DNA of 64,000 nucleotides from Terracidiphilus sp. Lineage in GTDB: Bacteria; Acidobacteriota; Terriglobia; Terriglobales; Acidobacteriaceae. The stretch covers positions 11,684-75,683 of the forward strand of contig JBEKCX010000001.1 in assembly GCA_050014655.1 (NCBI GenBank), given 5' to 3'. A program made the translations under genes and the position numbers. This document shows positions 2,700 to 23,251 of the stretch, piece after piece (the first letter of the stretch is position 1; each line of letters starts with the position of its first letter). The notes beneath the pieces were generated by a model that was not told the DNA's origin, did not search any database, and saw only the letters and a program-made list of their open reading frames with translations.

Positions 2700-4187
2700 A
2701 TGCGCACCGGGCAAGATTCCTACGATTCAGTCGCCTATCCGAGTTTTCCCCATCCATACACGCATCCCGATCGCCTGGCGGCGATGGCCATTCTGCATGG
2801 GCTTTCACCGGCGCCGGTTGAGCAGTGCCGCGTGCTTGAGATTGGATGCAATGACGGCGCGAATATCATTCCTATGGCTTATGCCATGCCGAAGAGCGAG
2901 TTTGCGGGGTTCGATCTGGCTGGTTTGCCCGTTGCGCGCGGGCAGGAGCGGATTGGCGAACTCGGCCTGCGAAACGTGCGCATCTTTCAGGGCAACCTGC
3001 TCGACGTTGGGGCGGAACTCGGCCAGTTCGATTACCTCGTTGCGCACGGGCTTTATTCCTGGGTTCCCGAACCGGTGCGCGAACGGCTGCTGGCGCTCTG
3101 CGAGGAGCTGCTGACGCCGGACGGAGTTGCGTTTGTCAGTTACAACGCGCTGCCGGGCGGTCATCTGCGCAAGATGACTCGCGAGATGATGCTGTTCCAG
3201 GTGAGAGAGATTGAAGACCCGGAGCAGCGGGTCTCCGGCGGGCTTGCGTTCCTTCACTTCCTGGCCGAGGCGAGACCGGAGGGCGATGTATATCGCCTGC
3301 TGATCGAAGAGCAGTTGAACAGAATGGAGAAGCGCATCCCCCGGGTCACCTACCACGATGAACTGGAGGATACTTACCATCCGGTGCACTTCATCGAGTT
3401 TGTGGAGCACGCCCGGAGGCATGGCTTGCAGTACCTGAGCGAAGCAGTGCTGCCGCCGCCAACCGATCCGTGCTACCAGTCCAGCATGCAGCCGGCGATT
3501 GCGAGCGCGGCGGGCGGCGACATTCTGAAAGAAGAGCAGATGCTAGATTTCATGCGCATGCGCGGGTACCGGGAGACGCTGCTTTGCAGAGCGGAGCGCG
3601 TGCTGCGCCGCGATCTTCCTGCCGAAGATTTGCGGCGGCTGTTGCTTGCCTCGCCGGTGAAATCGGCGCCGGGAGAAGCATCCGGGGCGAAAGTCTTCCG
3701 CCTGTCGGATGGGATCACAATGGAATCGAACCACGCGGGCGCGATTGCTCTGCTGGAGGCACTGGAGGCGGCGTGGCCGCGGGCGCTGAGCTTTGACGAG
3801 ATTGAACCGCTGATTGCCGGGAGCGGTTTTGCGCTCGATGGCGACGGAACTACATTGCTGATGCGGCTGGTGGTGGCGAAGATGGTCGATCTGCATGCCT
3901 GGAGAGCGCCAGTCGCTGGGAATGTCACGGCGCGGCCCAGGGCCAGCGCCTGCAGCCGGCAAGAAGCCCGGAGCGGAGCGTATGCGACCACTCTGCTGCA
4001 CAGCAAGGTGGCTCTCGACGATCCCGTGGTGCGGAGCTTTCTCAAGTTGCTCGACGGAACCCGCGACCGGAGGGCGCTTCTCGATGCCATGAAGGCTGAA
4101 TTCCCCACTATGGCCGAAGAAGAGCTTGAAAAGGGGATCGAGCCTGGTCTCGCCTTCTTTCACCGTGCCGGCTTGCTTGAAGCCTGA
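2700..4187 (+). CDS. Class I SAM-dependent methyltransferase with methyltransferase regulatory domain (Rickettsia PKMT-like architecture)
   Basis: YDSVAYPS..THPDRL N-terminus, RVLEIGC SAM motif, FDY..AHGLYSWVP, VAFVSYNALPG; AGGAG RBS upstream. Confidence 0.85.
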   Translation: MRTGQDSYDSVAYPSFPHPYTHPDRLAAMAILHGLSPAPVEQCRVLEIGCNDGANIIPMAYAMPKSEFAGFDLAGLPVARGQERIGELGLRNVRIFQGNLLDVGAELGQFDYLVAHGLYSWVPEPVRERLLALCEELLTPDGVAFVSYNALPGGHLRKMTREMMLFQVREIEDPEQRVSGGLAFLHFLAEARPEGDVYRLLIEEQLNRMEKRIPRVTYHDELEDTYHPVHFIEFVEHARRHGLQYLSEAVLPPPTDPCYQSSMQPAIASAAGGDILKEEQMLDFMRMRGYRETLLCRAERVLRRDLPAEDLRRLLLASPVKSAPGEASGAKVFRLSDGITMESNHAGAIALLEALEAAWPRALSFDEIEPLIAGSGFALDGDGTTLLMRLVVAKMVDLHAWRAPVAGNVTARPRASACSRQEARSGAYATTLLHSKVALDDPVVRSFLKLLDGTRDRRALLDAMKAEFPTMAEEELEKGIEPGLAFFHRAGLLEA

Positions 4188-6965: not shown

Positions 6966-8396
6966 TCAATGCTGCATGGCTAGCTCGGTCAGGTCCAGCC
7001 CGCTGCGCGCGCGCGCGTTGTTGCGGTCGCAGGCCAGCACCGCGCGAAACTGCCTGAGCGCGGCGGGATACTTGCCTTGCTGCCGGTTTCTCTCCGCCTG
7101 ATCGAGCATCTTGGGAAGCAGGTTCGCGTCCAGGTCGCAGTTGCCCGCCGGGGCGGCCTTGGGCTGCTTGGCCGGAGATGCCAGGGCAGCGTGGGAAGCG
7201 GTTTTGGCTGGCGCTGGCGCGGGCGCTTGGCCCTTGCGGCTCTTGGGGGCCGGCTTGCCGGGCTTTGCCGGCTTCGGCGCGGTGGCGGCACTTGCGGGAG
7301 GGGCGGGATTGGCGGGCAGGCTCTGGGCAGGTGGGGCAACGATGGGGGCGATAGCGGGCTGGCCGGCGCTGGAGTCCGGGCCGGGCTGCGGAACTCCGGC
7401 AACGGGGCCGGGTGGAGGCGCGGCGGTCGAGGCGGCCGGGGACGCGGACGCCGAAGAAGCCGGGAGCGCCGCAACGGCCGCCGGCTTCGGCATCCAGGTG
7501 TGCTTGTAAGCGACCGCCAACGCTGCGCCAACGATAAACAGTATGGCGGCCGCGGCTGCCAAGCCCCGGAGCCAGCGCGACTTTCCGCGCGGGGGAGCGG
7601 CGAAGGCTTCGAGATCCACGTGAGCCAGCGTCACCGTATCCGGCTCCGCAGCACTCGGTTCTGCCGCACTCGGCACCGCCGCACGCGGCTCTGCTGCAAG
7701 CGGGGTTGCGATCAACCCGCCGTCTGCCGCGGCGGGCTGCGGTTCGGCGGGAGGGACGGCCGTCTGCGGAGGCGGGGCAGGCGCCTCGCCCCCCAATCCA
7801 CTTGGCTGGATCAACCGGGAGAGCGCCTCCTCGTCGGAGGATCGGCTGGGCGCTTCCTTGCCGGCGCGCCAGAGCAGCTCGCACGGAGCGGCGTCCGAGG
7901 CAGTCTGCAAGGGAAGGCCGGGCAGATCGTGCAGAAGTTCAGCGGCCTTTGCGGTCAGCAGGATCTGCCCCGGCGCGGCGTTCTCCAACGGGAGCAGAAC
8001 GGAACTGTCATTCTCCAGGGCAGGCAGATCGGGAGCGGAGTGAACCAGGACAGCGGCAGCCGTTGCGGCGAATCGGTCAGCCTCAGAGAGCCCCTGGAGC
8101 GCCCATTGCAGCCGGCGCGCCGTCAGAACTGCAGGTTGAATGCCGGGAAAGGCAGCCACAAGGAACCTGCCGCGGGGCGCGGACGCGACCCCCTGCTCAG
8201 CCGCGATAAGGTCAAGGGCGAGAAAGACGGCCGGATCGTCACCCGTCCAGGAGAGATCGACGGCCGGGGCGTTCTCAGGGGCTCTCCACAGCCGGATGGA
8301 AAGGGCCGCTCCGCTGGGGGATGGGCTCTCCTTGACCACTGGAGTGGCTTGAGTCGCCGGCTGGCCGGGTGGTCGGGATTGCTCGGAGGAGGCCAT
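6966..8396 (-). CDS. Bitopic membrane protein: degenerate class III nucleotidyl-cyclase-like N-domain, Pro/Ala linkers, one TM, C-terminal TPR-like hairpin
   Basis: FLVAAFPGIQPAVLTARRLQ, VLVHS and LENAAPGQILLTAKAAELL resemble the class III cyclase scaffold; TM GLAAAAAILFIVGAALAVAY; C-terminal LDQAERNRQQGKYPAALRQFRAVLACDRNNARARSGL. Confidence 0.65.
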   Translation of the reverse strand: MASSEQSRPPGQPATQATPVVKESPSPSGAALSIRLWRAPENAPAVDLSWTGDDPAVFLALDLIAAEQGVASAPRGRFLVAAFPGIQPAVLTARRLQWALQGLSEADRFAATAAAVLVHSAPDLPALENDSSVLLPLENAAPGQILLTAKAAELLHDLPGLPLQTASDAAPCELLWRAGKEAPSRSSDEEALSRLIQPSGLGGEAPAPPPQTAVPPAEPQPAAADGGLIATPLAAEPRAAVPSAAEPSAAEPDTVTLAHVDLEAFAAPPRGKSRWLRGLAAAAAILFIVGAALAVAYKHTWMPKPAAVAALPASSASASPAASTAAPPPGPVAGVPQPGPDSSAGQPAIAPIVAPPAQSLPANPAPPASAATAPKPAKPGKPAPKSRKGQAPAPAPAKTASHAALASPAKQPKAAPAGNCDLDANLLPKMLDQAERNRQQGKYPAALRQFRAVLACDRNNARARSGLDLTELAMQH

Positions 8397-8644: not shown

Positions 8645-11341
8645 ATGGCATTGTGTGTCGTTATGCAAGAAGCAAGATCGCAGCGCAGTTTTTTGTGGAA
8701 GGCCGTCGCGTTGACGGCGCTTGGGCTGAGCTGGAATGCGCCTGCCGCCCTGGCAAAACAGGCTTCCCTCACGGCCATCGAACTCTACGATGGGCCGTCG
8801 GGTGCGGCCTATGTGCAACTTGGCGATGTGCTCATCAACGGCAAGTTCGAGATGCGCAATTGCACGCCATTCCAGGCGGCGGCCATCGACCATTCGACCT
8901 ACGGCAAGATGGAGAAGCTGGCGCTCGCGCCGGGCGGGGTTGTGGAGCGCGGCGCCGACGGCGTCCTGCACTATGTCACCAATCAAGGCACGTCCCTGTG
9001 CGTGGTGCCCGACAATGTGAAGTTCGACCACAATGCGTCTTATACCCTGTCGGAGCTGGCGGACCGGGCTGTTTTGACGGGGACTCCGGTCCCTGTCTCA
9101 GGCGTTGAGGCAGGCCCTGTGCCGCCCTTGAAGAATGGCGTGAAGCTGGTTTTTGTTGCCGCACCCGACCCGGAGCTAGCCGAGTACCTGCGCGCGCAGA
9201 GAGCCGGAGACGTTGCCGGCTGGTCGAACTATCTCGCCAAGTATGCGCTTTCGCCCCATGCCGCCGATGCCAAGCTGGCGCTGGCGTCGCTTTATCTGGC
9301 TGGCGGCGAGGCCTCACTGGATAAATACGGAAAGTCGGTGGCCGCGGGCTCGCCCTCCTATAGCGACTTGAGGGATTCCAAGGTCCAGGCCGACAATGCG
9401 AATGCCGTCAATCCCGGCCTGGACCGGACCGAGAAGCTTCTGGGAGGGATTCGCGATCAACTCACCGCCATTGCGGACAGTGGCCGCGGCGAACTGAATG
9501 CTTACCAGGATGCATTCAAGAGCCATGCTCCGGGGTATGTTCACCTGCAGAATGCCAGGAAGCTGAGCGATGTGGTGAGCGGAGTCGACGCGAGCTTTCC
9601 TGCAGGCCAGGCTCTGGCCGGCGATGTGATGCAGGCCAGCGACGCCTTCGGCAGCGTGCTGCGGTCGGCGGAGTCGGCGGTGGTGGCCAAGCACATGGAC
9701 CAGGCGCTGGAAGCCATCGCTCCGTTGCGCCCGTTCCAGGACGAAGAGCCGCGCATCGCGGTCGTCGTCAATGCGGCTTACAGTTACTATCTGCAGCTGG
9801 GCAAGCATTTCGGCGAGGCGGCGGATTGGCCGAACGCCATCAAGCAGTACGAGAAGGCGGTGGGCGCGAATGACACTTCGGAGGCGCGGGACGCGCTGGC
9901 AGAGGCGCAAAAGCAACTGGTCATCGTCGAGGACAAGGCGGCGGCCGTGAAGGCGCTGGCGACCAGCCGCGACTATGAGCAGCAGAAGGATGTGATAAAT
10001 GCCTTTGAGGTGCTGTACAACCTGCCTCCTTCGCAGCAGGCGCTGGTCTCCGCCGACATCGACAGACTGAAGGACGCCTACGTCCAAAGCGCGGTCCGGG
10101 CGGCAAAGGACCTGCAGAAGGCGCACGATCCCATCCGCGGGCTGGGAGACGAGATTGGGATGGAGAAGGCCTACGACTACCTGCAGCGCGCTTATGAACT
10201 GAGCAAGGTGGACTCCTACCAGGACACGATGGGCATTCTTGGCGACGATTTGAGCGCCTACTTTGTAGACCAGGCCAAGCGCTACCTGGACAAGCCGGCC
10301 GGATCGGGCACGGAGATGGGCTGGACCTATCTCGACGAGGCCCTGTCCTTTGAACCTTCCAACCAGACGGCGCACGACGCCAAGGTGGCGGCGGCTCCGG
10401 CTCATGCCATGCATTCGAAGATATCGATTCGCGTGCAGTTCCGCGACCAGACTTCGCAGCGCAACAGCACCGGCTTCATTCCCCAGCTGGAGGACGCGAT
10501 TATTACCGGACTGGAGGCGCCCACCATCACCGCGGTTCGATTTGGGGAAGCGACGGGCGGCGTGGAGCCGGATTTTCAACTGGCCGGAGACGTGTTGGAG
10601 CGTCAGATCGTGGAGACCTCAAATCTGGAAGCCAAGGAGTCAAAGTACCGCGCCGGGACGCATGAAGATCCCAACGAGGCGTGGAACAAGGCCAATCGGG
10701 CCTATGACGCGGCTGTGCGCCAACTGGCGACGGATCAGTCCGCGCTCCAGGGAGTGGAGGCGAAGGGCAAGAAGAAGGACATCGATGAGGTGAACGCAAG
10801 GATCGCCGCGGACCAGAAGGCAGTGGCGGACGCCCAGGCGCTGGCCGACTCGCTGCCCAAGACCATCACCATCGATGTGATTCGCCCTTACCAGTACGTT
10901 CGCAGGACCATCGATGTCAAGAACACCATCAAGCTGCAGTTTCGCATCGGCGAGACGTTGAGCGGGCAGATGGGGGATGCGGTGGTGGTGGAGAAGGAAG
11001 ACCCCAGGCAGTACGTGTTGCTGGAGGAAGTGAAGGCGGACGACACCGAGGGCGTGAAGCTGGGCGGGACCACTCCCAACACCAGCGAACTGCAGACGGC
11101 GCTGGAGAATGCGGCGCGCGATGAGCTGGTTCAAAAAGTGCGCCTGAAGGTGCAGGAGCTGCCGCGCCAGGTTTATGACGCGGGCCGGGCGAGGGAGCAG
11201 GAAGAAAACGTGGATGGCGCGGGCGAGTATTACCTGCGTTATCTGAGCTGCACCGCGGAGAATGGCTCGGCGGAGCGGCGGCACGCCAAGGAGTTTCTGG
11301 CCGAGAAGTTCAATATGCGGCCGGCGGGCGACCCGCGGTAG
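8645..11341 (+). CDS. Large exported TPR-like protein with C-terminal alpha/beta domain (possibly CsgG/LptE-like) and coiled-coil insert
   Basis: Signal peptide ending AALA|K (start 8645 or 8663); helical repeats (WSNYLAKYALSPHAADAKLAL, WPNAIKQYEKA); C-terminal ISIRVQFRD...PDFQLAGDV. Confidence 0.7.
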   Translation: MALCVVMQEARSQRSFLWKAVALTALGLSWNAPAALAKQASLTAIELYDGPSGAAYVQLGDVLINGKFEMRNCTPFQAAAIDHSTYGKMEKLALAPGGVVERGADGVLHYVTNQGTSLCVVPDNVKFDHNASYTLSELADRAVLTGTPVPVSGVEAGPVPPLKNGVKLVFVAAPDPELAEYLRAQRAGDVAGWSNYLAKYALSPHAADAKLALASLYLAGGEASLDKYGKSVAAGSPSYSDLRDSKVQADNANAVNPGLDRTEKLLGGIRDQLTAIADSGRGELNAYQDAFKSHAPGYVHLQNARKLSDVVSGVDASFPAGQALAGDVMQASDAFGSVLRSAESAVVAKHMDQALEAIAPLRPFQDEEPRIAVVVNAAYSYYLQLGKHFGEAADWPNAIKQYEKAVGANDTSEARDALAEAQKQLVIVEDKAAAVKALATSRDYEQQKDVINAFEVLYNLPPSQQALVSADIDRLKDAYVQSAVRAAKDLQKAHDPIRGLGDEIGMEKAYDYLQRAYELSKVDSYQDTMGILGDDLSAYFVDQAKRYLDKPAGSGTEMGWTYLDEALSFEPSNQTAHDAKVAAAPAHAMHSKISIRVQFRDQTSQRNSTGFIPQLEDAIITGLEAPTITAVRFGEATGGVEPDFQLAGDVLERQIVETSNLEAKESKYRAGTHEDPNEAWNKANRAYDAAVRQLATDQSALQGVEAKGKKKDIDEVNARIAADQKAVADAQALADSLPKTITIDVIRPYQYVRRTIDVKNTIKLQFRIGETLSGQMGDAVVVEKEDPRQYVLLEEVKADDTEGVKLGGTTPNTSELQTALENAARDELVQKVRLKVQELPRQVYDAGRAREQEENVDGAGEYYLRYLSCTAENGSAERRHAKEFLAEKFNMRPAGDPR

Positions 11342-11380: not shown

Positions 11381-14056
11381 ATGGAATCCCGCAGTGAGAA
11401 GCCGGCGGACACATTGACTCAGATAGGCAAGTATGAAGTCGTTGGGGTGCTGGGGCGCGGCGGGATGGGCGTGGTCTATCGCTGCGTCGATAGCCACCTG
11501 GGCCGCGAAGTCGCCATCAAGACGCTGACCGAGGGAGTCAAGAGCGATCCCGCCATGCTGGCGCGCTTTTACGAGGAAGGCCGCAAGACGGGGAATTTCA
11601 GCCATCCGAATATCGTCACCGTCTACGAGCTTGGCGACGACAAGGGGATTCCCTACATCGTGATGGAACTGGTCGAAGGCGATCCGCTCGACAAGCTGAT
11701 CGCAGCCGAGGAGCAGCTTCCGCTGGTCGAGCGCCTGCGGATCATGGCCGATGTGTGCTCCGCGCTGGGCTATGCGCACGGCCAGAATGTGATCCATCGG
11801 GACGTGAAGCCCGCCAATATCTTTGTGCAGCCCGACGGGCGGGTCAAGCTGCTGGACTTCGGCATCGCGCGGCCGGAGGAGCGAAAGGAGCAGGACCTCA
11901 GCCTCACCCGCCGCGGCCGCATCGTCGGGACGGTTGAGTATATGGCGCCGGAACAACTGACGGGCAAGCCCCTGGACCGCCGTTCCGACATCTTTGCCGC
12001 GGGCGTGGTTCTGTATCAACTGGTCTGCGGCGAGCTTCCGTTCTCCGGCGACGAGATCGTGCTGATGCGGAGGATTCTGAATGAGCCGCACCCTCCGCTG
12101 AGCAGCAAGTGCAAGGGCTGCCCGGCCTCACTGGACGCAATTGTCGATCGGGCGCTGGCCAAGTCTCCGGCCGACCGCTACTCGACGGCCGACGAGATGG
12201 CCGCTGATCTGACCACGGTGATCGCGGAGATTCAGGAGGGGCAGGCCCAGGAGTTATTGCCCGAGGCCAAGCGGCTGATGGAGGCGCAGGACCTTCAGCG
12301 CGCTCGCGCCGCGCTGCAACAACTGCTGAAGATGCAAAGCAAGAATGCCGAGGCGCGGGAGCTGCTGGCGGAGATTCAGCGGCAACTGAGCCAGCGCCAG
12401 CGCGAGGAGAGAATCCAGCAGCTTCGGCGCCAGGCGGAGGGCCTGCTGAACGACCAGGAGTTCGATAAGAGTCTTGCGATTCTGGATGAGGGGCTGGAGC
12501 TGGATGCCGCGAATCAGGAATTGAAGGAACTGCGGCAGCGGGTTGAGAAAGGCAAGGAGAAGCAGGAGCAGGTGCGCGAGTATCTGCGCCAGGCGGACGC
12601 CGCGCGCCGGGCGGGCGACTACAAGACCGCGATCTCCGCCGCCCGTGAGGCGCTGCAACTGGATGAGTCGAACTCCAAGGGAATAGTGCTCGTAAGCCTT
12701 CTCACCAAGGAGGCAGAGGAGGCCGGGAAGCGCGCCGACGTGAAGACGCTGCTGGAGGCGGCGCGCAGGGAACTGAGCCTGCGGCGCTACAAGGAAGCGA
12801 TCGAGGTTTTGCAGAAGGCGGCGCAGGCAGACCCGGCCAACCCGGAGATTCCGATTCTGCTGGAAGACGCCAACTTCGGTCTGGAGCAGATCAAGCGCAA
12901 GGAGTTGATTGCGCGACTGGAGACCGAAGTGCTGGCGGCGGCCGGCCTTGACGAGCTGGAACGATGCGCGCGGTCGGTTCAGGAAGCGCTGGCTTCCATG
13001 CCCACGGATACGACGCTGATCCGCCTGAACGCGCAGATTGACCGGCAGATCAAGGAACAGGAGAATCGCCGCTTTGTGGAAGAGACGATTCAGGCCTGCC
13101 GCGACCTGCGCCCAAAGGAGGCTTTGAAGCTGGTCCAGGAGGCCCGGCAGCGCGTTCCAGGCGAGGAGCGGCTGCAGGGGCTGGAAAAGCTGCTCTCCGA
13201 TCGGGTCAAGCGGCAGACGGAAGAGGAGCGGCGGGAAGAAATCGTATCCCAGGCGCGCGAGGCCCTGGCCGGCGGAAAGTATGCGGATGCGGTTCGCATC
13301 CTGGAAGGTTGCCAAGCGGAAGGCATTGCCACCGATGAGATTCTTTCGCTGCTGGAGTTTGCCCGCCGCGAAGAGGAAGAGCATCGCAGCCAGGCGCTCA
13401 CGCGCAGCCGGGTTGCGCAGGCGCAGGCGCTGATCGGCGCATCGGCCTACGAGGAAGCGATCGCGTTCCTCGAAGGCGCGATGAAAGAAACCGACGACAA
13501 GGCCCTGCGCTTCGTTCACGAACAGGCTTTGGAGGGCCGCGCGTCGCTCGCGAAACAGGTTGAGGCGGAGCTGGCAAATGCGGGAAAGCTGGCGCGGGAA
13601 GGAGGCCAGGCCGAGGCCGTCGAGTTTATCGAGTCGCTGCCGCCTGCCGTCCGGCGGTCGGAGCGGGTGCGGGCGGCCGAGTCCGCGCTCAGGGAAGAGC
13701 GCCAGGGGGCGATCTTCCGCACCATCGGCAGGGCGTACTCAGAGCTTGAGACCGACCTTTCGGCAGGCGAGAGCACCATGTGCCGGGTGGCGGCTGCCCT
13801 GGGCGATTCCACGCTTGCGGGCTCGGTCGCAGAGACGTTTCGCGGAAGGATGCGCGCCTTTGCCGACCGTTCGGTCGTGGACCTGACCGGGAAGTACAAG
13901 ATTATGATGGACAGCGGCGACAGGGCAGGCGCCGCGGAGCTGGCCACGAAAGTGGCCGGAATCGTTGACTACGCCGGCCCGGAGGCCAAATCCGGCTGGG
14001 AGAGCGTCGCCCCACGGCCAAGAAAGATCAGAACGCCGGTTCGTTTGAGCAGATAA
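11381..14056 (+). CDS. Hanks-type Ser/Thr protein kinase with long C-terminal TPR-like helical repeats, no obvious TM
   Basis: LGRGGMGVVY, VAIK, HRDVKPAN, DFG, GTVEYMAPE, SDIFAAG; ~58-aa helical repeats downstream. Confidence 0.95.
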   Translation: MESRSEKPADTLTQIGKYEVVGVLGRGGMGVVYRCVDSHLGREVAIKTLTEGVKSDPAMLARFYEEGRKTGNFSHPNIVTVYELGDDKGIPYIVMELVEGDPLDKLIAAEEQLPLVERLRIMADVCSALGYAHGQNVIHRDVKPANIFVQPDGRVKLLDFGIARPEERKEQDLSLTRRGRIVGTVEYMAPEQLTGKPLDRRSDIFAAGVVLYQLVCGELPFSGDEIVLMRRILNEPHPPLSSKCKGCPASLDAIVDRALAKSPADRYSTADEMAADLTTVIAEIQEGQAQELLPEAKRLMEAQDLQRARAALQQLLKMQSKNAEARELLAEIQRQLSQRQREERIQQLRRQAEGLLNDQEFDKSLAILDEGLELDAANQELKELRQRVEKGKEKQEQVREYLRQADAARRAGDYKTAISAAREALQLDESNSKGIVLVSLLTKEAEEAGKRADVKTLLEAARRELSLRRYKEAIEVLQKAAQADPANPEIPILLEDANFGLEQIKRKELIARLETEVLAAAGLDELERCARSVQEALASMPTDTTLIRLNAQIDRQIKEQENRRFVEETIQACRDLRPKEALKLVQEARQRVPGEERLQGLEKLLSDRVKRQTEEERREEIVSQAREALAGGKYADAVRILEGCQAEGIATDEILSLLEFARREEEEHRSQALTRSRVAQAQALIGASAYEEAIAFLEGAMKETDDKALRFVHEQALEGRASLAKQVEAELANAGKLAREGGQAEAVEFIESLPPAVRRSERVRAAESALREERQGAIFRTIGRAYSELETDLSAGESTMCRVAAALGDSTLAGSVAETFRGRMRAFADRSVVDLTGKYKIMMDSGDRAGAAELATKVAGIVDYAGPEAKSGWESVAPRPRKIRTPVRLSR

Positions 14057-14152: not shown

Positions 14153-15118
14153 TCAAGCGGGCAGGGCGAGGAGCAGGATGCAGGTGATGTTATCCACGCC
14201 GCCGCGCTGCTTGGCCATGTGGATGAGGTTGGAGCAGGCCGTTTCGAAGGTCGAGGCGGCGAGGATGGAGGCGATCCCGTCCTCGGCAAAGTAGCGGGTC
14301 AGGCCGTCGGTGGCCAGGAGAACCCCGATGCCGGGCTTGAGATCGACGGAGTAGAAGTCGGGCTGCACCTCGGTGCCCACGCCGACCGCGCGGGTAATGA
14401 CCGACTCCATGCCGCGCAGATCCGCCAGGTGGGCGTTTTCGATGGTCAGCGTGCCGTTGCGAATCAGTTCATTGATATAGGAATGATCGACGGTGAGCTG
14501 CGCGCAGCGGTTGTCCTGGAGGATGTAGGCGCGACTGTCGCCGACGTTGCCCAGTATGAGTTTGTCTTGATCGAGCGCGGCCGCCACCACGGTGGTTCCC
14601 ATGCCTTTGTTCTCCGGAATCTGCCCGCTCTCCCAAACGTCGAGATTGGCGGTATTGATGGCATGTAGCAGCCGGGTGCTGACGGGCAGGCCGGAGGCCG
14701 CCGAAGCGGCGAAGCTCTGCATGATGGCCGCCACCGTGCGCGAGCTGGCGACTTCGCCGCTGGCCATGCCTCCCATGCCGTCGCAGACGACAAAGATGCC
14801 CAGCGATTCATCGTAACCGAAGCAGTCTTCGTTATTGCTGCGCACGCAGCCAATATCGCTGAGCGCGGAGACCGCGATGCGAAAGGGAGGGGCGGCGGGA
14901 ACCGGCGGCTCGGCCGGCTCGGCTGAAAGCTCGGCAGGAGCGGCTGGACTGCTCGCAGGCTCTTCGATGGGCGCGGGTTCGGCCGATGCCTCTGCCGTCT
15001 GCGGCTCGGCCGGTTCCGGCGCAGGGTCCGGCGCGGCATCGGCTGGGGCCGCGGCTTCGGCCGACTCTCCAAGGGGTGCGCCCCACTGCGGAAGATCGTT
15101 GGTGAGTTCTTCGGTCAT
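14153..15118 (-). CDS. PP2C-family Ser/Thr phosphatase (PppA/Stp1-like) with Pro/Ala-rich N-terminal extension
   Basis: SDIGCVRSNNED, VCDGMGG, GMGTT, NVGDSRAY, LTVDHS, LATDGL, GGVDNIT. Confidence 0.95.
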   Translation of the reverse strand: MTEELTNDLPQWGAPLGESAEAAAPADAAPDPAPEPAEPQTAEASAEPAPIEEPASSPAAPAELSAEPAEPPVPAAPPFRIAVSALSDIGCVRSNNEDCFGYDESLGIFVVCDGMGGMASGEVASSRTVAAIMQSFAASAASGLPVSTRLLHAINTANLDVWESGQIPENKGMGTTVVAAALDQDKLILGNVGDSRAYILQDNRCAQLTVDHSYINELIRNGTLTIENAHLADLRGMESVITRAVGVGTEVQPDFYSVDLKPGIGVLLATDGLTRYFAEDGIASILAASTFETACSNLIHMAKQRGGVDNITCILLLALPA

Positions 15119-15205: not shown

Positions 15206-18200
15206 CTAGCGAGCCACGTTTGCAACGCAGTGAAATCCTTTCATGAAATCCGGGTTCAGCAATGGCGCCCCAGGGCCCGAGGCGTCGAAGAGCACGATCT
15301 CAGGGGCTTGATTGTTGAAGCTGAAGAAGAACTTCAGGCGGTTGGGAGCGATCTGCGGCGCGGCGAAGCCAAAGTGGAAGACCGACCACAGGCCGGTCAT
15401 GACAGGCGCGGTGTTCTTCTGGGTGGCGAGGGTGATCTTGCTGGACGGTTGAGAGACCCAATGGAAGGTGGCCGACTGGCCGCTCGCAGCGATCTGCTTG
15501 CCATCGATATTGAGAACGGCATCGGCATTGCCGGGCCCCTTGACCTCGGTGAGGGTGAAGTCGAGCGAAGGCTGGTTTCCGCCGCCCGGATAGAGGCTGG
15601 ATGAGATCTTCTGGGCGTGGGTGAGGAAGCTGAGGAACGCGGGGTTGATATGGACCGTGGAGCCGGGAGCCACCACGTATTGAGAGCCCTGCAGCGCCAC
15701 CAGCGCATGGATGGATGCGGTGAACTGCGCAAAGGAGCCGGAACCGGGGGCGAAGACCTGGGCGACCTCATCGGTAGAAGCCTCGTTCGAGGACTGGGGG
15801 TCGAAGGGGAACTTGGAAAGCACGGGCGCAATCTGCGCGCAGAAGGTCTTGGCTCCGCCGCCGGCGGCGTTGGCAGGCGCCTGGGCCGCCAGGTTCTTGA
15901 TGGATTCGATGGGCGCTTCGAGGAGAGTGAAGCTGGTCTTATCCATGCTCCCGGCTGGGTCGGGAAGAAAGCCGTTGCGAAGGTTTTCCGCGGCTTGTTC
16001 GGCGGTGACGGCGGCCTGGATAACGGGCGCGGCGGCGGTGGGATCGTTGGCGTTGGCGGTATTAAGAGTAAGGTTCTTCACGGCGCCTTCAAGCCCCTGC
16101 AGGGACTGAATATAGGCCTGGTTGGAAGGAGCAATGAAGCGATTATCCGGATTGGACGGAGGAACAACGGACTGCGGCGCCTGAAAGACGGTCGATATCT
16201 CCGGCGCGGCAACGCCGGTGTTGATGGAGATGAGCGAGAAGAGTTCCAGCATGGCGGAGGTATTGGAGTCCAGCGCGCCCAGCCTGGTTCCGGCATCGGC
16301 GAACCTCTGGTAGGGACGGAACTGCGCCTTGGTCAGGTAGGTTCGCCAGTTCTGGATGTAGTCGGCAATGTACGCCGATTTCAACTGGGTAGAGAGGGCG
16401 ACGCGGTCGATAGGGGGCCCGGAGGCGGGGCCGAGAACCCATTCTTCCCCGCGGAAGTAGGGGTCGGGGTGCAGGATCGCGTCCTGCATGAAGGCGAAAC
16501 CGTCCTTGGTGAAGGCTCCCTGCACCGTATAGCCGTCGACAATTTCCTGCACCGATCCGGGGAATTTGCTGTTGAAGTTGACCCCTGGGACTTTGTGGTT
16601 GGCGGCGGCCAGCATGCTTTGGTAGACGTGCTGGAATCCCTGGAAGCCATTGAGATAGAGGCGGGCATGGGCGACGACAACGTCGTTCAGAAGACCGCCG
16701 GTCTGCGCCATGCACGAGGATGGTTCGGCAATCATGCCGGCGTAAAACGCGAACTGAGTTTGCGCCAGCTGGGCGAGGTCCGGAGCGGGAGTTGCGCTGC
16801 CGGCCCATTCGGTTGCCAGCGCGGTGGGAAGGAAGTCGAGCGTGTCCTGGGCGGAGTCGGGATTGGGGTTTGTGGCCGTGACGATGTAGGCCTTCAGCGG
16901 CCGGTAAGTCGCGCTGTAGTCGGCGTCAGGCGTTGGCACGGCCGGCACGGCGCGCAGCTTGGCGAGAATTTGCTCCTGCGTCGGAGCCAGCAGCAGGGCG
17001 CGGAATTTGTTGGAGTAAGCCTGGCAGGCAATGGGATAGAGTGCCTCGCCGCGATAAAGGCCGAAGCGATCCATGAGCGGCGGGCCGTTCTTGCGATAGC
17101 CGTCGAGTTCATCCAGGACCGCTCTAAGCCTTTCGAGGGCCTCAAGGTCGGCGGAAGAGGCAAATGCGCCGGCGGAGACGGGCGTAACCGGCGCGCCCGC
17201 CGCCGCGGCTACGCGCTGTTCGAGCGAGCGGTTGTGGAAGAAGGAGATGGTGGTCAGTAGCAGCAGAATCAGAACGACCGCGCTGACGCAGCCGAGCAGC
17301 GCGCACTTGAGAAAGCTGGTCCGGGTGCTGGCGCGGCTGGCCTCCAGGGCCGACTTGTCGGCGAGCAGAATCTGCGAGAACAGGTGAGGCAGAAAGACCC
17401 ACTGCGCAACCTTGCGCGTACCGCCTCGCCGGGACTGCGGCGCGGGCGCCTGCTGCTGCTCCATGGCGGCGAGAGAAAAGATGCGGGTGGCCCCAGCGTT
17501 GACGGAAGGAGCGGCAGCCTGCGGCTGAGCCGGGCCGATCTCGAGAACGTCCTCGACCACGTGGGCGCGCATGCCGGCGAAGAAGAAACCGCGCAGGAAC
17601 GGGTTGACGCCGATCTGGCTGGGACGGGCAACCTCGGCGAGGAAAGAGACGATGCCGGCGCGGAGCTTGCGCAGGTCGCGGGGGAACTCATAGGCGCGCG
17701 CCAGGTCCTGGAGTTCGCCGCCGCGGGAGAGAATATCGAGGCGGAACTCGGAGAGCGCGTAAAGGAGCTGGTCGAACCGCGAGCCGATCAGGGCCGTGGC
17801 TTGCTCGGTATAGAGGCCGGAGCCGGAGTCGAGGGAAGAGAGCAGCGTGCCGATGGGGAGCTTGACCTCCTCGTCCGAGAGCCGGGCGACGTAATTGGCA
17901 AAGGGAGTGACGTTGTCCAGCTTGGTGAAGAGCACATAGACGGGCAGCGAGATGCCGAGGGTCTGAGAGAGCTGGCGGAGACGCTCATTCAGGGATTGCG
18001 CCAGGGCGCGAATCTGCTCGGAGGTATTGGGAGCCAGGATGCGCTCGATGCTGACGCAGACCACCACGGAGCGGGCCGGGAGGCGGCTGTCGCCGAAGAC
18101 CGAGCCAATCCGCGCGGGCATGGTGGCCTTGACGAGTCTCGCCCACAGCGGCGGCTGGCGCAGGAGCGAGCCTCCGGCCTCGACCAGAACGAAGTTGCCG

Positions 18201-18643
18201 GCCAGCCAGACGTTGGCCAGCTGAGTGGGAACGACGAGGCCGTCCCGATAGACGTTCCCGGCAAGCAATTCGGGGTCCAGGCCGGATTGCAGCACGGTTT
18301 GCGTCTTGGCGGAGTTCTCATCGCCAATCACATAGATAAGGGGCAGGGAAGCCAGCGACTTGGCGCCCGCGCGATTGGCTTGGCGAATGCGGGCATCAGC
18401 ATCGCGGAGCAAGGTGCCCAGGTTGATGGCGTCGGGAGTGTCGGGCCCGGCTGCTCGCCCCGCGGCCTTATCCAGGCTGTGCATATACCAAAGAACGAAG
18501 ACAACGGCCAATGCGCCCAGCAGACCGAGAATGACGCAAAAGAGCACCAGTCTTGTGCCTTCAAAGTGCAGGGCAAACGCCCCCCAAATCACCAGGGCCA
18601 GATAGACGAGAAAGATCAGTATCCCGATCAGGATGCGTTTCAT
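15206..18643 (-). CDS. tssM: Type VI secretion membrane complex subunit TssM (IcmF)
   Basis: Two N-terminal TMs, LPLIYVIG..SAKT P-loop remnant, LPVYVLFTKLD, PFLRGFFF, third TM, FGLYRG, KFPFDP; overlaps tssL stop. Confidence 0.9.
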   Translation of the reverse strand: MKRILIGILIFLVYLALVIWGAFALHFEGTRLVLFCVILGLLGALAVVFVLWYMHSLDKAAGRAAGPDTPDAINLGTLLRDADARIRQANRAGAKSLASLPLIYVIGDENSAKTQTVLQSGLDPELLAGNVYRDGLVVPTQLANVWLAGNFVLVEAGGSLLRQPPLWARLVKATMPARIGSVFGDSRLPARSVVVCVSIERILAPNTSEQIRALAQSLNERLRQLSQTLGISLPVYVLFTKLDNVTPFANYVARLSDEEVKLPIGTLLSSLDSGSGLYTEQATALIGSRFDQLLYALSEFRLDILSRGGELQDLARAYEFPRDLRKLRAGIVSFLAEVARPSQIGVNPFLRGFFFAGMRAHVVEDVLEIGPAQPQAAAPSVNAGATRIFSLAAMEQQQAPAPQSRRGGTRKVAQWVFLPHLFSQILLADKSALEASRASTRTSFLKCALLGCVSAVVLILLLLTTISFFHNRSLEQRVAAAAGAPVTPVSAGAFASSADLEALERLRAVLDELDGYRKNGPPLMDRFGLYRGEALYPIACQAYSNKFRALLLAPTQEQILAKLRAVPAVPTPDADYSATYRPLKAYIVTATNPNPDSAQDTLDFLPTALATEWAGSATPAPDLAQLAQTQFAFYAGMIAEPSSCMAQTGGLLNDVVVAHARLYLNGFQGFQHVYQSMLAAANHKVPGVNFNSKFPGSVQEIVDGYTVQGAFTKDGFAFMQDAILHPDPYFRGEEWVLGPASGPPIDRVALSTQLKSAYIADYIQNWRTYLTKAQFRPYQRFADAGTRLGALDSNTSAMLELFSLISINTGVAAPEISTVFQAPQSVVPPSNPDNRFIAPSNQAYIQSLQGLEGAVKNLTLNTANANDPTAAAPVIQAAVTAEQAAENLRNGFLPDPAGSMDKTSFTLLEAPIESIKNLAAQAPANAAGGGAKTFCAQIAPVLSKFPFDPQSSNEASTDEVAQVFAPGSGSFAQFTASIHALVALQGSQYVVAPGSTVHINPAFLSFLTHAQKISSSLYPGGGNQPSLDFTLTEVKGPGNADAVLNIDGKQIAASGQSATFHWVSQPSSKITLATQKNTAPVMTGLWSVFHFGFAAPQIAPNRLKFFFSFNNQAPEIVLFDASGPGAPLLNPDFMKGFHCVANVAR

Positions 18644-19398
18644 AGGGATATCTCCGCAAGGCTGGTTGCCGGGTTATTCGCCAGGGTTGGAGGCGTTTGC
18701 TCAATGCCGCGCGCGGTGGTGGGCATCGACTGGCCAAGAATCAGCATGTAGCCGAGATAAGCCAGGAGGGTGAAGACGGCCAGGACGATGGCGGTCACCG
18801 CCAGGCGGAGCACCCAGGGGTCGCGTTTGGGGCGGGGGGGCGCAGCCGGGGCTTCGGGGGGGCGGAGGAGCGCATAGGCGCCGCGGATGCGGGTGATCTT
18901 GTCGCGGATGCGGCCGAGAATGGCGTGAATCTCAGAGGCGTCGCCGAAGGCGAAGCGGCCGCGGTAGCCCAGCAGCAGGCAAAGGGCATGCAGCTCCAGC
19001 ACGTCGGCAACCTCGGCGGATTCGGGCCGGTTGAGCAGATCGGTCACGTTGCGGAAGAAGTATTCGCCGGCGAAGTGACCGCCGAACATCTCTTCCTGCA
19101 GCGGACGGCGGGCCCAGTCGGCGAAGGTCGGGTCCTTGGAGTTGAGGACGCTCTCGTCGAGGAATCCGATCATGGCGTAGATGGCCATCTTGGAGGCCTC
19201 ATCGCTGTAACCCATGGCGGAAGCGTCTTTGACCGCCGCTGAGATCATCTTGCGCAGGGTGGCGCGGAAGGAGTCGGCGTTTTCAACGCGCTGAACGTAA
19301 AAGCGGGTGCGCAGGATGACGGTAAAGACTTCCTGGAAGGCCATAGCCAGATTGTTGGTCTTCATCACCTGAAGAGGGGAAGCTGGAGAAGAAGTCAT
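18640..19398 (-). CDS. tssL: Type VI secretion protein TssL (DotU), short form without OmpA domain
   Basis: YAMIGFLDESVL, W..RPLQEEMFGGHFAGEYFF, LCLLLGYRGRF, C-terminal TM. Confidence 0.92.
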   Translation of the reverse strand: MTSSPASPLQVMKTNNLAMAFQEVFTVILRTRFYVQRVENADSFRATLRKMISAAVKDASAMGYSDEASKMAIYAMIGFLDESVLNSKDPTFADWARRPLQEEMFGGHFAGEYFFRNVTDLLNRPESAEVADVLELHALCLLLGYRGRFAFGDASEIHAILGRIRDKITRIRGAYALLRPPEAPAAPPRPKRDPWVLRLAVTAIVLAVFTLLAYLGYMLILGQSMPTTARGIEQTPPTLANNPATSLAEISL

Positions 19399-20747
19399 GC
19401 GGAGGTCTCCGTGATGATGGTGAGTTCAAAGGTTGCGTCGCCCAGGTCGCCGGGCAGATAGACTCCCACCTGCTTGGTCAGGAGAATATGCTGCCAGCAA
19501 GCGCCGCTGAGGGAGACGGAGAAGTAGTGCATGTCGGCCTGGGCGTGGAGCGCGGCGGGCGGGACGGGCAGGTGCATCAGCTCCAGGCCGGGAAGGGCGC
19601 GCTGCACCAGCTTGGCAACCCCCTCGGCCGAACAGACCTTGACCAGCGCTGGGGTCTGGCGCAGGATGAGCGACTCGGCGATGGGGGAGCGGATGCCGAA
19701 GATCCAGCGCGCGCGGCGCAGGCAGCGCTCGTCCTTCACCTCGGCCGCAAAGATGTAACTGTCCGTTTTGCGGAACTGAAGAGTGACGGTGTTGGATGGG
19801 GCGACGATCTCGAGGTAGCGCCGGATAAGAGCATCCAACTCCTTGAATGTGGAAGCCAGGTCGCGATGCCGGTAGGCCGGAATCTCGTCGCGGGCCGATT
19901 CGAGGGCAAAGGTGCTCAATGCGCCGGCCAGGCGGACGAGATCGCGGTAGACCTCTTCCGGGTGGCTGCGGCGGTCCTGCAGATGATGGCGCAAGGCGGG
20001 CAGGCTGGAGCAAAGAGCGTGCAGGAACCAGTAGTTGGCCACATCGAGGGCTGAAGTGCCCAGCTCGAAGCCGCCGGAACTGGCCCTCACGGAACGGGTG
20101 GAAACGATCTTCTCATCGATCGCCTGAACCAGCCGGTGCAGGATCAGAACCAGGCTCTCGGACGCGCTGATGCGCAGGCAGGGTGGAATGAAGTCGGGGT
20201 CGGAGGCAAATCCCCCTTTGCCGTCGCGAAAGATGCGAGCGATGGGAAACGAGACGGCGCCTTCGGCGAGCTGAGCCTGGCTCAACAGGACGAGGTTCTT
20301 GCGGGCGAATGAGACGCTGTTCTCGCCCTGGCCAAGGGCGTCGTCTCTGAGCACGCGCTTGACGGCGCCATACCGGGCGCTCGAGCCGCCGCCGAGGTCG
20401 CAGTCCAGACCCTGGTCCTGGCGGGGCGGAATCGCCAGGTGCAGGATGATCTCGCTGTCGGTGGAAGCGAACAGGCGGCTCAGTTGCACTGGCTCAGGAA
20501 CCGAGTCGCAGTCGGGCAGATCGAAGATGAGCCCGTCGGGCAGAATGCCGGAAGCGAAGTTGAGAATGGCGAGACCGTTGCCGAGGGCCTCCGTGTCGAT
20601 GGAGAAATGAAGAAATCCCCACGGCTCCTGGCGAAGGTTGGAGTTGAGAAACCAGAGCGAATCTTCGAAATACCGGCTCTGCGTCTGAAAATGATGCGGA
20701 CCGAGATGCATTCCTTCAGACCAGACGACCCGCGAAAGGAACTTCAT
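19395..20747 (-). CDS. tssK: Type VI secretion baseplate subunit TssK
   Basis: MKFLSRVVWSEGMHLGPHHFQ, WGF, GILPDG, FIPPCL, HPEEVY..L..LAGAL, YRHRDL, V.RALPGLEL; start taken at MKFL. Confidence 0.93.
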   Translation of the reverse strand: MKFLSRVVWSEGMHLGPHHFQTQSRYFEDSLWFLNSNLRQEPWGFLHFSIDTEALGNGLAILNFASGILPDGLIFDLPDCDSVPEPVQLSRLFASTDSEIILHLAIPPRQDQGLDCDLGGGSSARYGAVKRVLRDDALGQGENSVSFARKNLVLLSQAQLAEGAVSFPIARIFRDGKGGFASDPDFIPPCLRISASESLVLILHRLVQAIDEKIVSTRSVRASSGGFELGTSALDVANYWFLHALCSSLPALRHHLQDRRSHPEEVYRDLVRLAGALSTFALESARDEIPAYRHRDLASTFKELDALIRRYLEIVAPSNTVTLQFRKTDSYIFAAEVKDERCLRRARWIFGIRSPIAESLILRQTPALVKVCSAEGVAKLVQRALPGLELMHLPVPPAALHAQADMHYFSVSLSGACWQHILLTKQVGVYLPGDLGDATFELTIITETSA

Positions 20748-21013: not shown

Positions 21014-22801
21014 ATGGACAAAGCGACGAAACCGGATGGATCGAACGCCTCACCGTGGCCGGAGGAATCCGGTTCGGAACAGGGTTTTGGTGCAACGGGC
21101 GTTTTTCAGGTGGTGAAGACGCCGGAGGCTCCGGCTGGACCAGCCCCCTCGGGATTGGAGTCCTTCTTCCCGGAGAACCGCGCTCCGGAGCCGGCAAGGC
21201 CGCTGCCGCCGCCAGCGCCTAGGTCGCTGGCCGAGCCGGTGGTCCACAAGGTGGTCTTCGGGGCCGGCGCGGAGAGCTCGCCGGAGCTCCTGGACCGGAT
21301 GCGGCTGGCCTCGGCGGAGAGAGCGCCTCTTGCGGAGAAGGTTCCGGCGGCCGGTTCCGGCGGCGCGGGCAGCGGAGGATTCACGGAACTGCTGCGCACA
21401 TTGGGAAGCGATTCGGCCCCGCCTCCGCCACCCCCCGCGCAAGAAGCGCCGGCGCCCGCGCGTCCAGCGCCCCCGTCGGGGTTCACCTCCCTGCTGCAAA
21501 CTCTGAACGCGCCGGAAGCAGCAGCGCCGCCAGTGAGACCGGTTCCAGAACAGCCCAGATCAGTCCCCGCGGCCTCAGGTTCGAGTGGATTCACGGAGTT
21601 GCTGCGGACCACGGGGGGCGCGGATGCAGGGCCGGGAGCTTCTGGGCTGGCGGCGCCGGGACCGGGCGAAGCGCCATTCTTCGCGGGAGCGGCCGGGGCC
21701 GTTCCCCCTGCCGCCGAAGGCAAGCCGGGAGCCTTCACGCAGTTGTTCGGCACGTTTGGCAGCGAGGCGAGCGCACCGGCCCCGGCGGCCAGCGAGCGCG
21801 GACCGGCGCCCTCCGCCGCAAAGGCGGATTCCTTCACTCGGATGCTGTCGCTTGAACCACAGCCTCCCGCCCGTGAGCCGGCCTTCCAGGAAGAGCGCAA
21901 GCCATTGCCGGGAAGCTTGAATTACGGCGTTACCCCTGGAATGGCCGGGCCGGCCGCGCCGGTCCGCGATCCATTTGCCGCGCCGGCGGCTGAGACCCCG
22001 CCGGAAGAAAGCACTCCGCCGGGGAGCGGAGTCGGTATTACGCGCTTGATTCAGATGCTGGATGAGCCTTCGAGGCCGCCGGCTGTGCCTGTTGAGGCCC
22101 CGCGGGTCAGCCCTCCGCTGGGGAAGGAGCCAGGGGCCTGGACGCAGACCTTCGCATCCCTCTCCACGCCCAGTGAACCAGCGCCGGCGGCCAGAGCGCC
22201 TGCGTGGGCTTCGCCGCCGCCCTCCGCGGCAGCGGCCCCGCCCGCGCGGGAGGTGCAGTTCCCCGGCGGCCTGAACGAGCCCGTCGTGCATCCGGCAGCC
22301 TCCGGACCGAGCGAATTTACGCGCATTCTCGATGCCTCCAGGATGCGCGAGATGGCCATGAGGGGCGGCGCAGGCGCGGCCAACCTGCCCCAGGCGCCGC
22401 TGCCGCAGGCTCCTCCGCCGCCGGCTCCCGCGCCGTTTTCCCCACCCGCGATGCCCAGTTATCCGCTTCCCGCAGCGCCGCCGATGGGCGGAATGCCGGG
22501 GATGGGGGCCATGCCTCAGCCCGGCGTTTACCCTCCTCCGCTGCCGCAGCCGCCGGCTTATCCAATGAGCTACGCGCCGCCGGCCGCGGTGATGCCGGCC
22601 GCGGGCGCAGGCTTGCCGCAGCCGCCCGGAATGTATGCTCCGGCGCCGCCGCCCATGCCCGCCGCTCCGCAAGCGCTGCCGGTGAAGCCGCCTGATGCGG
22701 CGCCGGGGAAACTACAGCAACTGGTGCCTGTGCTGCTGGTGGTGATCATCGTTCTGCTGATTGCGCTCCTGGTGACGGTCATCTTCCTGATGAAGCATTA
22801 G
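21014..22801 (+). CDS. Pro/Ala/Gly-rich disordered protein with repeated G-x-F-T-x-L-L motifs and C-terminal membrane anchor
   Basis: GGAGG upstream of ATG 21014 (20981 alternative); repeated GGFTELLRT/SGFTSLLQT/GAFTQLFGT/SEFTRILDA; C-terminal LVPVLLVVIIVLLIALLVTVIFLMKH; divergent from tssK. Confidence 0.8.
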   Translation: MDKATKPDGSNASPWPEESGSEQGFGATGVFQVVKTPEAPAGPAPSGLESFFPENRAPEPARPLPPPAPRSLAEPVVHKVVFGAGAESSPELLDRMRLASAERAPLAEKVPAAGSGGAGSGGFTELLRTLGSDSAPPPPPPAQEAPAPARPAPPSGFTSLLQTLNAPEAAAPPVRPVPEQPRSVPAASGSSGFTELLRTTGGADAGPGASGLAAPGPGEAPFFAGAAGAVPPAAEGKPGAFTQLFGTFGSEASAPAPAASERGPAPSAAKADSFTRMLSLEPQPPAREPAFQEERKPLPGSLNYGVTPGMAGPAAPVRDPFAAPAAETPPEESTPPGSGVGITRLIQMLDEPSRPPAVPVEAPRVSPPLGKEPGAWTQTFASLSTPSEPAPAARAPAWASPPPSAAAAPPAREVQFPGGLNEPVVHPAASGPSEFTRILDASRMREMAMRGGAGAANLPQAPLPQAPPPPAPAPFSPPAMPSYPLPAAPPMGGMPGMGAMPQPGVYPPPLPQPPAYPMSYAPPAAVMPAAGAGLPQPPGMYAPAPPPMPAAPQALPVKPPDAAPGKLQQLVPVLLVVIIVLLIALLVTVIFLMKH

Positions 22802-22846
22802 GAGTTTGCCGGGAATCGATTCCCAGAGGACTCGTTGGAGGAAGAG

Positions 22847-23251
22847 ATGCTGAAGGGCTTTCGGGATTTTATCCTGCGCGGAAACGTCGTGGACCTGGCG
22901 GTCGCCGTCATTCTCGGCGCGGCCTTCAATGCGATCGTCACGTCGTTTGTGAAGGACATACTCACCCAGTTGATCGCCGCCGTTGTGGGCAAGCCGGACT
23001 TCAAGGATGTGGTGCTCAAGCTGAACGGCACCCCCATCTATATCGGCAACTTCCTGAACGCGGTCATCGCGTTTTTGATTGTGGCCGGCGTGGTCTATTT
23101 TGCCATTGTGCTGCCGTTGAACGCGCTCATGGCGCGGCTCAAGAAGCCCGCGCCGGAGGCTCCCTCGTCGATGAAGACCTGCCCGGAGTGCCTGAGCGAG
23201 ATTCCGCTGGCCGCCAAGCGCTGCGCCCACTGCGCCCAACCGGTGGCATAG
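22847..23251 (+). CDS. mscL: Large-conductance mechanosensitive channel with C-terminal C4 zinc-ribbon-like tail
   Basis: MLKGFRDFILRGNVVDLAVAVILGAAF, IGNFLNAVIAFLI; tail CPECLSEIPLAAKRCAHC. Confidence 0.95.
   Translation: MLKGFRDFILRGNVVDLAVAVILGAAFNAIVTSFVKDILTQLIAAVVGKPDFKDVVLKLNGTPIYIGNFLNAVIAFLIVAGVVYFAIVLPLNALMARLKKPAPEAPSSMKTCPECLSEIPLAAKRCAHCAQPVA

Follow-up and report, generated by a model that had tools for sequence, protein, structure and literature searches.

A predicted disordered, membrane-anchored threonine-repeat protein accompanying two-TssK type VI secretion clusters in Terriglobia

The gene referred to here as X lies in a 64,000-nucleotide window of a Terracidiphilus genome (by window we mean the whole stretch of DNA that was analysed) and encodes a long protein, predicted to be disordered, with repeated threonine motifs. 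X is a type VI secretion system (T6SS) accessory gene that holds a conserved position outside the core Tss families, and it is a real feature, representing an unnamed T6SS accessory family. We give a probability of about 50% to the reading that X, tethered to the membrane, serves the Hanks-type kinase and PP2C phosphatase of its cluster as a scaffold and as a substrate with many sites, standing in place of the disordered region of Fha. To our knowledge, control of T6SS assembly is known almost solely from Proteobacteria, where kinase signalling runs via Fha. The repeats of X and a matching loop in TssM supply the exact residues to mutate, so that kinase control of a T6SS that lacks Fha becomes testable.

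Anatomy of X and conservation of its repeats

The features of X and its surroundings are collected in table 1. The start codon of X agrees with its homologs and has a GGAGG 9 nt upstream. A preliminary description, made from the sequence of the window, had pictured a Pro/Ala/Gly-rich chain with one C-terminal transmembrane (TM) segment, and composition (Pro 21%, Ala 18%, Gly 10%) and hydropathy agree with it: the sole hydrophobic segment spans residues 573-591 (mean KD 3.7), and the hydropathy of the whole chain reveals no N-terminal hydrophobic stretch. An Alphafold2 (AF2) model from a 37-row alignment is disordered except for short helices (90-101, 124-129, 343-350 and 434-450) and the TM helix (567-594), beyond which about one residue is left. 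From the lone C-terminal TM helix, the disorder and the lack of an N-terminal hydrophobic stretch we infer that the repeats probably lie on the inner membrane's cytoplasmic side.

Table 1. Features of X and neighbouring genes, in window positions; motif threonines carry their residue numbers in X.
Feature	Position	Strand	Remarks
898-aa protein	8645..11341	+	no Pfam family; directly upstream of kinase gene
Hanks-type Ser/Thr kinase with TPR region	11381..14056	+	PF00069, TPR families; catalytic motifs intact; no TM predicted
PP2C-family phosphatase (PppA-like)	14153..15118	-	PF00481, PF13672
tssM (IcmF)	15206..18643	-	PF06761, PF14331, PF21070
GATRIF in TssM cytoplasmic loop	17477..17494	-	residues 384-389, between TM2 and TM3
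tssL (DotU)	18640..19398	-	PF09850
tssK1	19395..20747	-	PF05936; divergent from X; the genome has a second TssK paralog
gene X	21014..22801	+	595-aa disordered threonine-repeat protein, C-terminally anchored; without Pfam family
GFGATGVF, N-terminal motif (T28)	21083..21106	+	same type as TssM loop motif
motif 1, GGFTELLRT (T124)	21374..21400	+	
motif 2, SGFTSLLQT (T158)	21476..21502	+	
motif 3, SGFTELLRT (T194)	21584..21610	+	
motif 4, GAFTQLFGT (T242)	21728..21754	+	
motif 5, DSFTRMLSL (T275)	21827..21853	+	
motif 6, VGITRLIQM (T343)	22031..22057	+	short helix predicted
motif 7, GAWTQTFAS (T377)	22133..22159	+	
motif 8, SEFTRILDA (T436)	22310..22336	+	best-conserved motif; opens predicted 17-residue helix
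C-terminal transmembrane helix, single (residues ~567-594)	22712..22795	+	AF2 and hydropathy

All nine islands that the preliminary description had picked out are present, at the positions it gave, in the reading frame of X, each with a Thr followed by Leu, Phe or Ile at +3. Its G-x-F-T-x-L-L motif holds for motifs 1-3 and not for the others; the eight repeats fit [FWI]-T-x-[LMIT]-[LFI], separated by spacers of 33-68 residues. Nor are the islands the only conserved parts of the chain, as had been claimed: conservation extends to EPVVHKV (74-80), to the helix LLDRMR (93-98) and to RDPF. Across 20,000 shuffles of X the mean number of matches was 0.012 and the maximum 1, compared with eight in the real chain, for a pattern that is post hoc in being derived from X's own motifs. 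The Thr codons of the repeats vary (ACG, ACC, ACT), so they are unlikely to be a DNA-repeat artefact.

A Pfam search with X returned no family, and thus neither an FHA domain nor T6SS_FHA_C (PF20232), nor a DotU or OmpA-like peptidoglycan-binding domain. The ESM Atlas matched X to two unnamed acidobacterial clusters (0.92 and 0.90) and gave no family, and the RNA run search listed no RNA holder. A homolog search yielded 148 matches, and the motif counts use the 120 of these that were listed, the named ones being hypothetical proteins of Terracidiphilus plus one stray ‘DnaK’ label. We scored the second place of segments of the form aromatic-x-x-hydrophobic-hydrophobic, the last 45 residues being excluded. 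Thr filled that place in 807 of 822 segments and Ser in two, while overall Ser is commoner than Thr in X homologs (8.9% versus 5.8%). The proportion was 514 of 547 in 123 further, more distant representatives, 112 of 135 in the 18 homologs with the N-terminal kinase-like domain discussed below, and 307 of 346 in 40 class-wide frames, a set selected by its Thr motifs; as all these proteins are kin, none of the counts is independent. Loss of the Thr among homologs had been named in advance as an outcome that would speak against a phosphorylated chain, and what we find, in close and distant homologs alike, is conservation. At the GATGVF position, 100 of the 120 listed homologs have the Thr form and five the Ser form, and 15 lack it.

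The family consensus is [GS]-[GSE]-[FWY]-T-[RQE]-[LM]-[FL] and the class-wide one P-G-E-F-T-[RQ]-[ML]-F, with an acidic residue at -2 and a hydrophobic one at +3; the number of repeats per homolog ranges from 3 to 18. The motifs hold 690 of 2143 Phe residues, about one third, in what amounts to a sticker-and-spacer layout. One alternative is that the repeats, rich in Phe, act as stickers that associate with one another, or as amphipathic helices that bind the membrane, and form a phosphorylation-free condensate there. AF2 does place helices at motifs 1, 6 and 8, and Fha condensates offer a T6SS precedent (10.1101/2023.12.21.572528). We nevertheless consider this very unlikely, since such a chain should tolerate Ser or small residues at the Thr position, where they hardly occur, since TssM conserves a single copy, and since Pro often follows the class-wide motifs (within +4 to +7 in 51%, compared with 16% in close homologs). 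The amphipathic helices envisaged in the preliminary description accordingly suit the Terracidiphilus-type motifs and not the class-wide ones, of which only 14% have a hydrophobic residue at +6.

Genomic setting and distribution

The preliminary description had X divergent from tssK, which is correct; the two starts leave a gap of 266 bp. Among 45 loci from other genomes, tssK1, at the head of the run tssK1-tssL-tssM-PP2C, adjoins X in 43, and in the remaining two the contig ends. The homologs are thus not mostly away from tss genes, a result on which the earlier view of X had been staked. The PP2C gene follows tssM in 33 of the 45 loci, the other 12 ending before that point, and 37 have a second tssK (34% identical) downstream of X, beyond which lie tssB, tssC, hcp, tagJ, tssA, tssE, tssF, tssG, clpV, vgrG and PAAR. 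A Hanks-type kinase gene is in or adjoins each of 11 extended clusters (11/11). The window's own kinase gene adjoins X in just two of the 45 loci, which counts against the substrate reading in that the kinase acting on X may be this one or another.

The T6SS cluster of this genome is split, with tssK2 on contig C135 and tssF, tssG, clpV and a second kinase also on small contigs (C135, C373, C365). We did not find tssB, tssC, hcp, tagJ, tssA, tssE, vgrG or PAAR in this assembly, which is 89.7% complete. The missing TssC suggested an orphan tssKLM module, which we rejected given the genes on the small contigs and the complete cluster of relatives. An mscL gene with a C-terminal zinc ribbon (22835-23251) follows X and marks the split here and in L001-L003. 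Upstream of the kinase gene, the 898-aa protein is preceded by a 476-aa protein (6966-8396, minus strand) with one TM segment, a weak C-terminal TPR match and no significant Pfam family; G246 has a comparable module of three genes flanking its T6SS (L143:10756-17407), and the two proteins are possibly the input of the kinase.

Wherever the cluster is split (this genome, L001-L003, G264), X remains with tssK1-tssL-tssM. This bears on a second reading, which we hold to be tenable but rather doubtful: the repeats would be short linear motifs that need no phosphorylation and, by binding TssK1 (or TssL/TssM), form a multicopy tether between the baseplate and a membrane complex without TssJ, the Thr being retained because it serves packing or hydrogen bonding. 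The same motif is borne by TssM, a known partner of TssK; the C-terminal region of TssK1 has invariant residues specific to this paralog, among them R344, W348, R363, K379 and H407; and the spacers between repeats could reach across several subunits. An invariant Thr would be equally expected of such a motif, which counts against the substrate reading. On the other hand, X adjoins tssK2 rather than tssK1 in several genomes, the variable repeat number matches no fixed symmetry, and a TssK1 tether leaves unexplained both the kinase N-lobe fused to distant homologs and the operons in which N-lobe, PP2C and kinase genes meet (L286, L294).

The distribution of X was surveyed in 301 Terriglobia genomes, using two profiles across all of them plus motif scans of fetched loci; with just 4 or 16 candidates scored in each genome, the profile searches may have missed copies. 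TssK was detected in 71 genomes, with one match in 14 and two or more in 57, making the two-tssK T6SS a feature of about one fifth of the genomes sampled. X is present in 48 of the 57 (the copy in G502 is degenerate) versus one of the 14 (G448), and in 44 of the 48, from several families, it sits directly beside a tssK gene, which bears out the co-occurrence with tss genes that had been proposed as a check. Of the other four, X is separated by a few kb from tssB/C or a Clp ATPase gene in G405 and G498, is on a short contig in G561, and is at a remote site in G391. The last case, together with the short X of G530, where TssK was undetected, counts against the substrate reading. X was not found in nine of the 57 two-tssK genomes, some of which retain the TssM motif and a kinase; it is therefore not universal, which weighs against the substrate reading. 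In the wider phylum, 15 tssK regions of genomes with a single tssK showed no X-type frame, and three of these regions carry FHA genes.

K1 and K2 come out as sister groups (SH-aLRT 96) in a quick tree with 43 TssK rows, from which two single-copy loci, not parsed, are absent. The tssK duplication appears from these sequences to be one event, so the co-occurrence counts of X and two tssK genes are not independent and amount to little more than one observation.

Among the 230 genomes without a detected TssK, G530 is the one with a short X, while proteins with the N-lobe and few or no repeats occur in three or four, one of them (L286) in a PP2C/kinase operon. Such cases could suggest that X is a general kinase-signalling protein and a mere passenger of the T6SS cluster, with no role in the machine. 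Given its place directly beside tssK in most two-tssK genomes, across several families, and the motif that it has in common with TssM, we think this highly improbable.

Several smaller features of the clusters were recorded alongside. In many of them vgrG is followed by a conserved gene for a protein of 135-167 aa that has no Pfam family (L051:5631-6050, L053:6427-6909, L055:6746-7249, L059:13891-14301). Methyltransferase-like genes recur beside tssK2, PAAR or X (window 2700-4187, L053:7376-8875, L096:8592-10268, L200:2439-3989, L230:5477-7072, L293:6191-7666), and by eye the window ORF at 2700-4187 resembles the PF10119-bearing L053 protein at its N-terminus. The tssK matches at G264:C1:2387303-2388585, and both tssK and X at G541:C6:310014-315220, are split across frames by a frameshift or an assembly error.

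Links to the kinase

Outside Acidobacteriaceae, X usually starts with a 95-residue domain. In the AF2 model of one such homolog, residues 1-91 are folded (pLDDT ~88) and the chain is disordered onward to the TM helix. Every match listed by Foldseek for this domain is a protein kinase (best E 3e-4), and in a profile alignment to the N-lobe of MARK3 it has a His where the catalytic Lys would be and lacks a glycine-rich loop. No two-lobed kinase fold was found in the modelled homolog, of which the N-lobe alone is folded. PDB sequence searches gave no matches with the full-length homolog profile and weak kinase matches with the N-lobe profile, and a Pfam search at E 0.1 with two fragments of the N-lobe gave no family. 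Fold prediction and alignment together indicate that the domain is a catalytically dead kinase N-lobe. Its profile match is absent from this genome (G000) and from the four other Acidobacteriaceae genomes with X. In this lineage the N-lobe has been lost, which also counts against the substrate reading.

The N-lobe relatives at L286 and L294 share operons with genes for a kinase and a PP2C-like protein. At L286, L287, L288, L290 and L294, a kinase N-lobe is joined to a Pro-rich linker and a TM segment, with few or no repeats, and two of these genes sit upstream of genes for a kinase and a PP2C-like protein; L288 also has a similar N-lobe ahead of a complete kinase domain. PknB N-lobes mediate activating back-to-back dimers, with L33 and D76 as interface residues (PMC13434768).

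A second link runs through TssM. The motif A-T-x-x-F is found in a flexible cytoplasmic loop of all 40 X-linked TssM proteins (40/40) and class-wide in 21 of 23 (GATRMF, EATSMF, GATGIF and others), L209 deviating at +3 and L232 lacking it, compared with none of the seven loops located in 12 TssM proteins tried from single-tssK systems. One genome, G476, has X and a TssM loop without the motif, which counts against the substrate reading. The X-type motif may resemble the ETTSVF site of GarA/OdhI. The Thr of the class-wide consensus, with an acidic residue upstream and a hydrophobic one at +3, resembles the Thr motif reported for PknA from M. tuberculosis (PMC7164672). Both the dead N-lobe of distant homologs and the motif shared with TssM strengthen the tie to the locus kinase drawn in the preliminary description.

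If X is a substrate and scaffold, its C-terminal helix would hold some 570 disordered residues at the inner membrane's cytoplasmic face beside TssL and TssM. The cluster kinase would phosphorylate the TssM loop as well as the repeated Thr residues of X, and PP2C would reverse this. The phosphorylation state of the repeats would set how X gathers parts of the membrane complex and baseplate, and so govern assembly at the TssK1-TssL-TssM module, helping to set where and when a T6SS is built. In lineages that keep the N-lobe, X may recruit or tune the active kinase through N-lobe contact. The step from phosphorylation to assembly, lacking an FHA reader, is a guess.

Two variants of the arrangement were seen. 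In G264 (L093:3468-5216) a kinase fused to an FGE-sulfatase domain, which we take to be the TagR fold, is encoded directly after tssM, like PpkA and TagR in one chain, and in G565 (L208:9826-10680) a PP2C-like gene lies between the two tssK genes instead of X.

Possible readers and known counterparts

A phosphorylated Thr with a hydrophobic residue at +3 is a signature that many FHA domains recognize. The repeats of X could, when phosphorylated, dock FHA proteins, either FHA-DUF4123 effector adaptors (for cargo loading) or FHA-GAF-SpoIIE phosphatases. Of 37 genomes with X, 25 have an FHA-like domain, and at some of these clusters (L120, L125, L128 and L146) PAAR genes adjoin FHA-DUF4123 fusions that keep G-R and S-x-x-H. 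However, we found no FHA domain in the other 12 genomes, among them this one, G003 and G005; gaps in metagenome-assembled genomes weaken any single absence, but the assembled T6SS clusters of G003 and G005 hold no FHA gene. Inspected by eye, 20 of 30 FHA loci look like FHA-GAF-SpoIIE away from T6SS genes and four like FHA-DUF4123, and DUF4123 was detected in only eight of the 37 genomes. The T6SS Fha C-terminal family (PF20232) was found in none of 56 two-tssK genomes, and neither was TssJ (PF12790), with positive E. coli controls for both; the 57th genome, G459, was left out. An FHA reader would on these gaps be at most accessory, and docking of FHA proteins is quite unlikely as an account of the repeats. 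Recruitment of FHA partners, as proposed in the preliminary description, is not supported as the central mechanism.

For X as a kinase substrate, the reader of the phosphorylated sites would not be a core FHA protein; it could be TssK1, X itself, or none at all if the repeats act as a phosphate sink that sets a threshold. A bolder version, speculative and on balance unlikely, is that Terriglobia have a T6SS subtype with two specialised TssK proteins and neither TssJ nor Fha, in which a phospho-Thr sticker chain derived from half a kinase nucleates assembly and TssK1, a non-FHA reader, recognizes the phosphorylated motif of X and TssM. The kinase field, too, would take an interest in an isolated N-lobe that serves as a module and in a possible phospho-Thr reader outside the FHA family. 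A complex prediction with two copies of TssK1 and X residues 113-168 scored 0.00, giving no answer for or against.

PpkA phosphorylates TssL at T14 (PMC3953482) and Fha at T640 (PMC12607579), and T6SS assembly needs the disordered region of Fha (10.1101/2023.12.21.572528). The nearest counterpart is Fha/TagH with PpkA-PppA in Acidovorax citrulli and the Pseudomonas aeruginosa H1 system, where a T6SS cluster likewise holds a Hanks kinase, a PP2C and a long, disordered, membrane-attached protein with Thr as the likely switch (PMC12607579; 10.1101/2023.12.21.572528; PMC13584744). X differs in having a true TM helix, no FHA domain or T6SS_FHA_C, and 3-18 repeated Thr motifs where one site is reported for Fha, and its clusters differ in that tssK is present twice and neither Fha nor TssJ was detected. 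Two Granulicella-type homologs of X also gave no Pfam match to an FHA domain, and the AF2 model of X shows no folded domain. The likeness of X to Fha/TagH would be one of function only, X having neither domain that marks the family.

In the Agrobacterium TssL pThr14-Fha switch, the kinase site is likewise a Thr in the cytoplasmic part of a T6SS component of the inner membrane, comparable to the conserved A-T-x-x-F loop of TssM; that site, as reported, is single, on TssL (DLPpTVVEI), and read by Fha, whereas clusters with X encode no such reader (PMC3953482). Dead kinase-derived modules on membrane proteins of secretion or envelope machines, as in distant X homologs, are also known from EssB/YukC (T7SSb) and MviN; these are described as pseudokinase domains, while X homologs keep the N-lobe only and the protein of the window not even that (PMC12599244).

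Papers on acidobacterial T6SS, on FHA and phosphorylation, and on two TssK paralogs, covered by title and the start of the abstract, described no such protein or cluster type, though subscription papers or supplements might mention one. The words ‘Acidobacter’ and ‘disordered’ are absent from the portion seen of a 2026 review of T6SS accessory factors (PMC13584744).

A last parallel is the ABC transporter Rv1747 of Mycobacterium tuberculosis, which reportedly has a membrane-tethered disordered linker with kinase-target Thr residues and is said to undergo multivalent clustering. Rv1747 has its own FHA readers and two sites, whereas X has many sites and no FHA domain.

Two further sets of genes belong with the census of FHA and TssJ. 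Fusions of FHA and a DUF4123-like adaptor at or near the clusters, mostly beside PAAR, extend to L136, L154 and L226 in addition to the four loci named above. A CsgG-family gene after tssM in G273 (L096:17547-18629) and an FlgT_C fragment between two kinases in G004 (L057:10382-10834) are candidates for the outer-membrane part where TssJ is missing.
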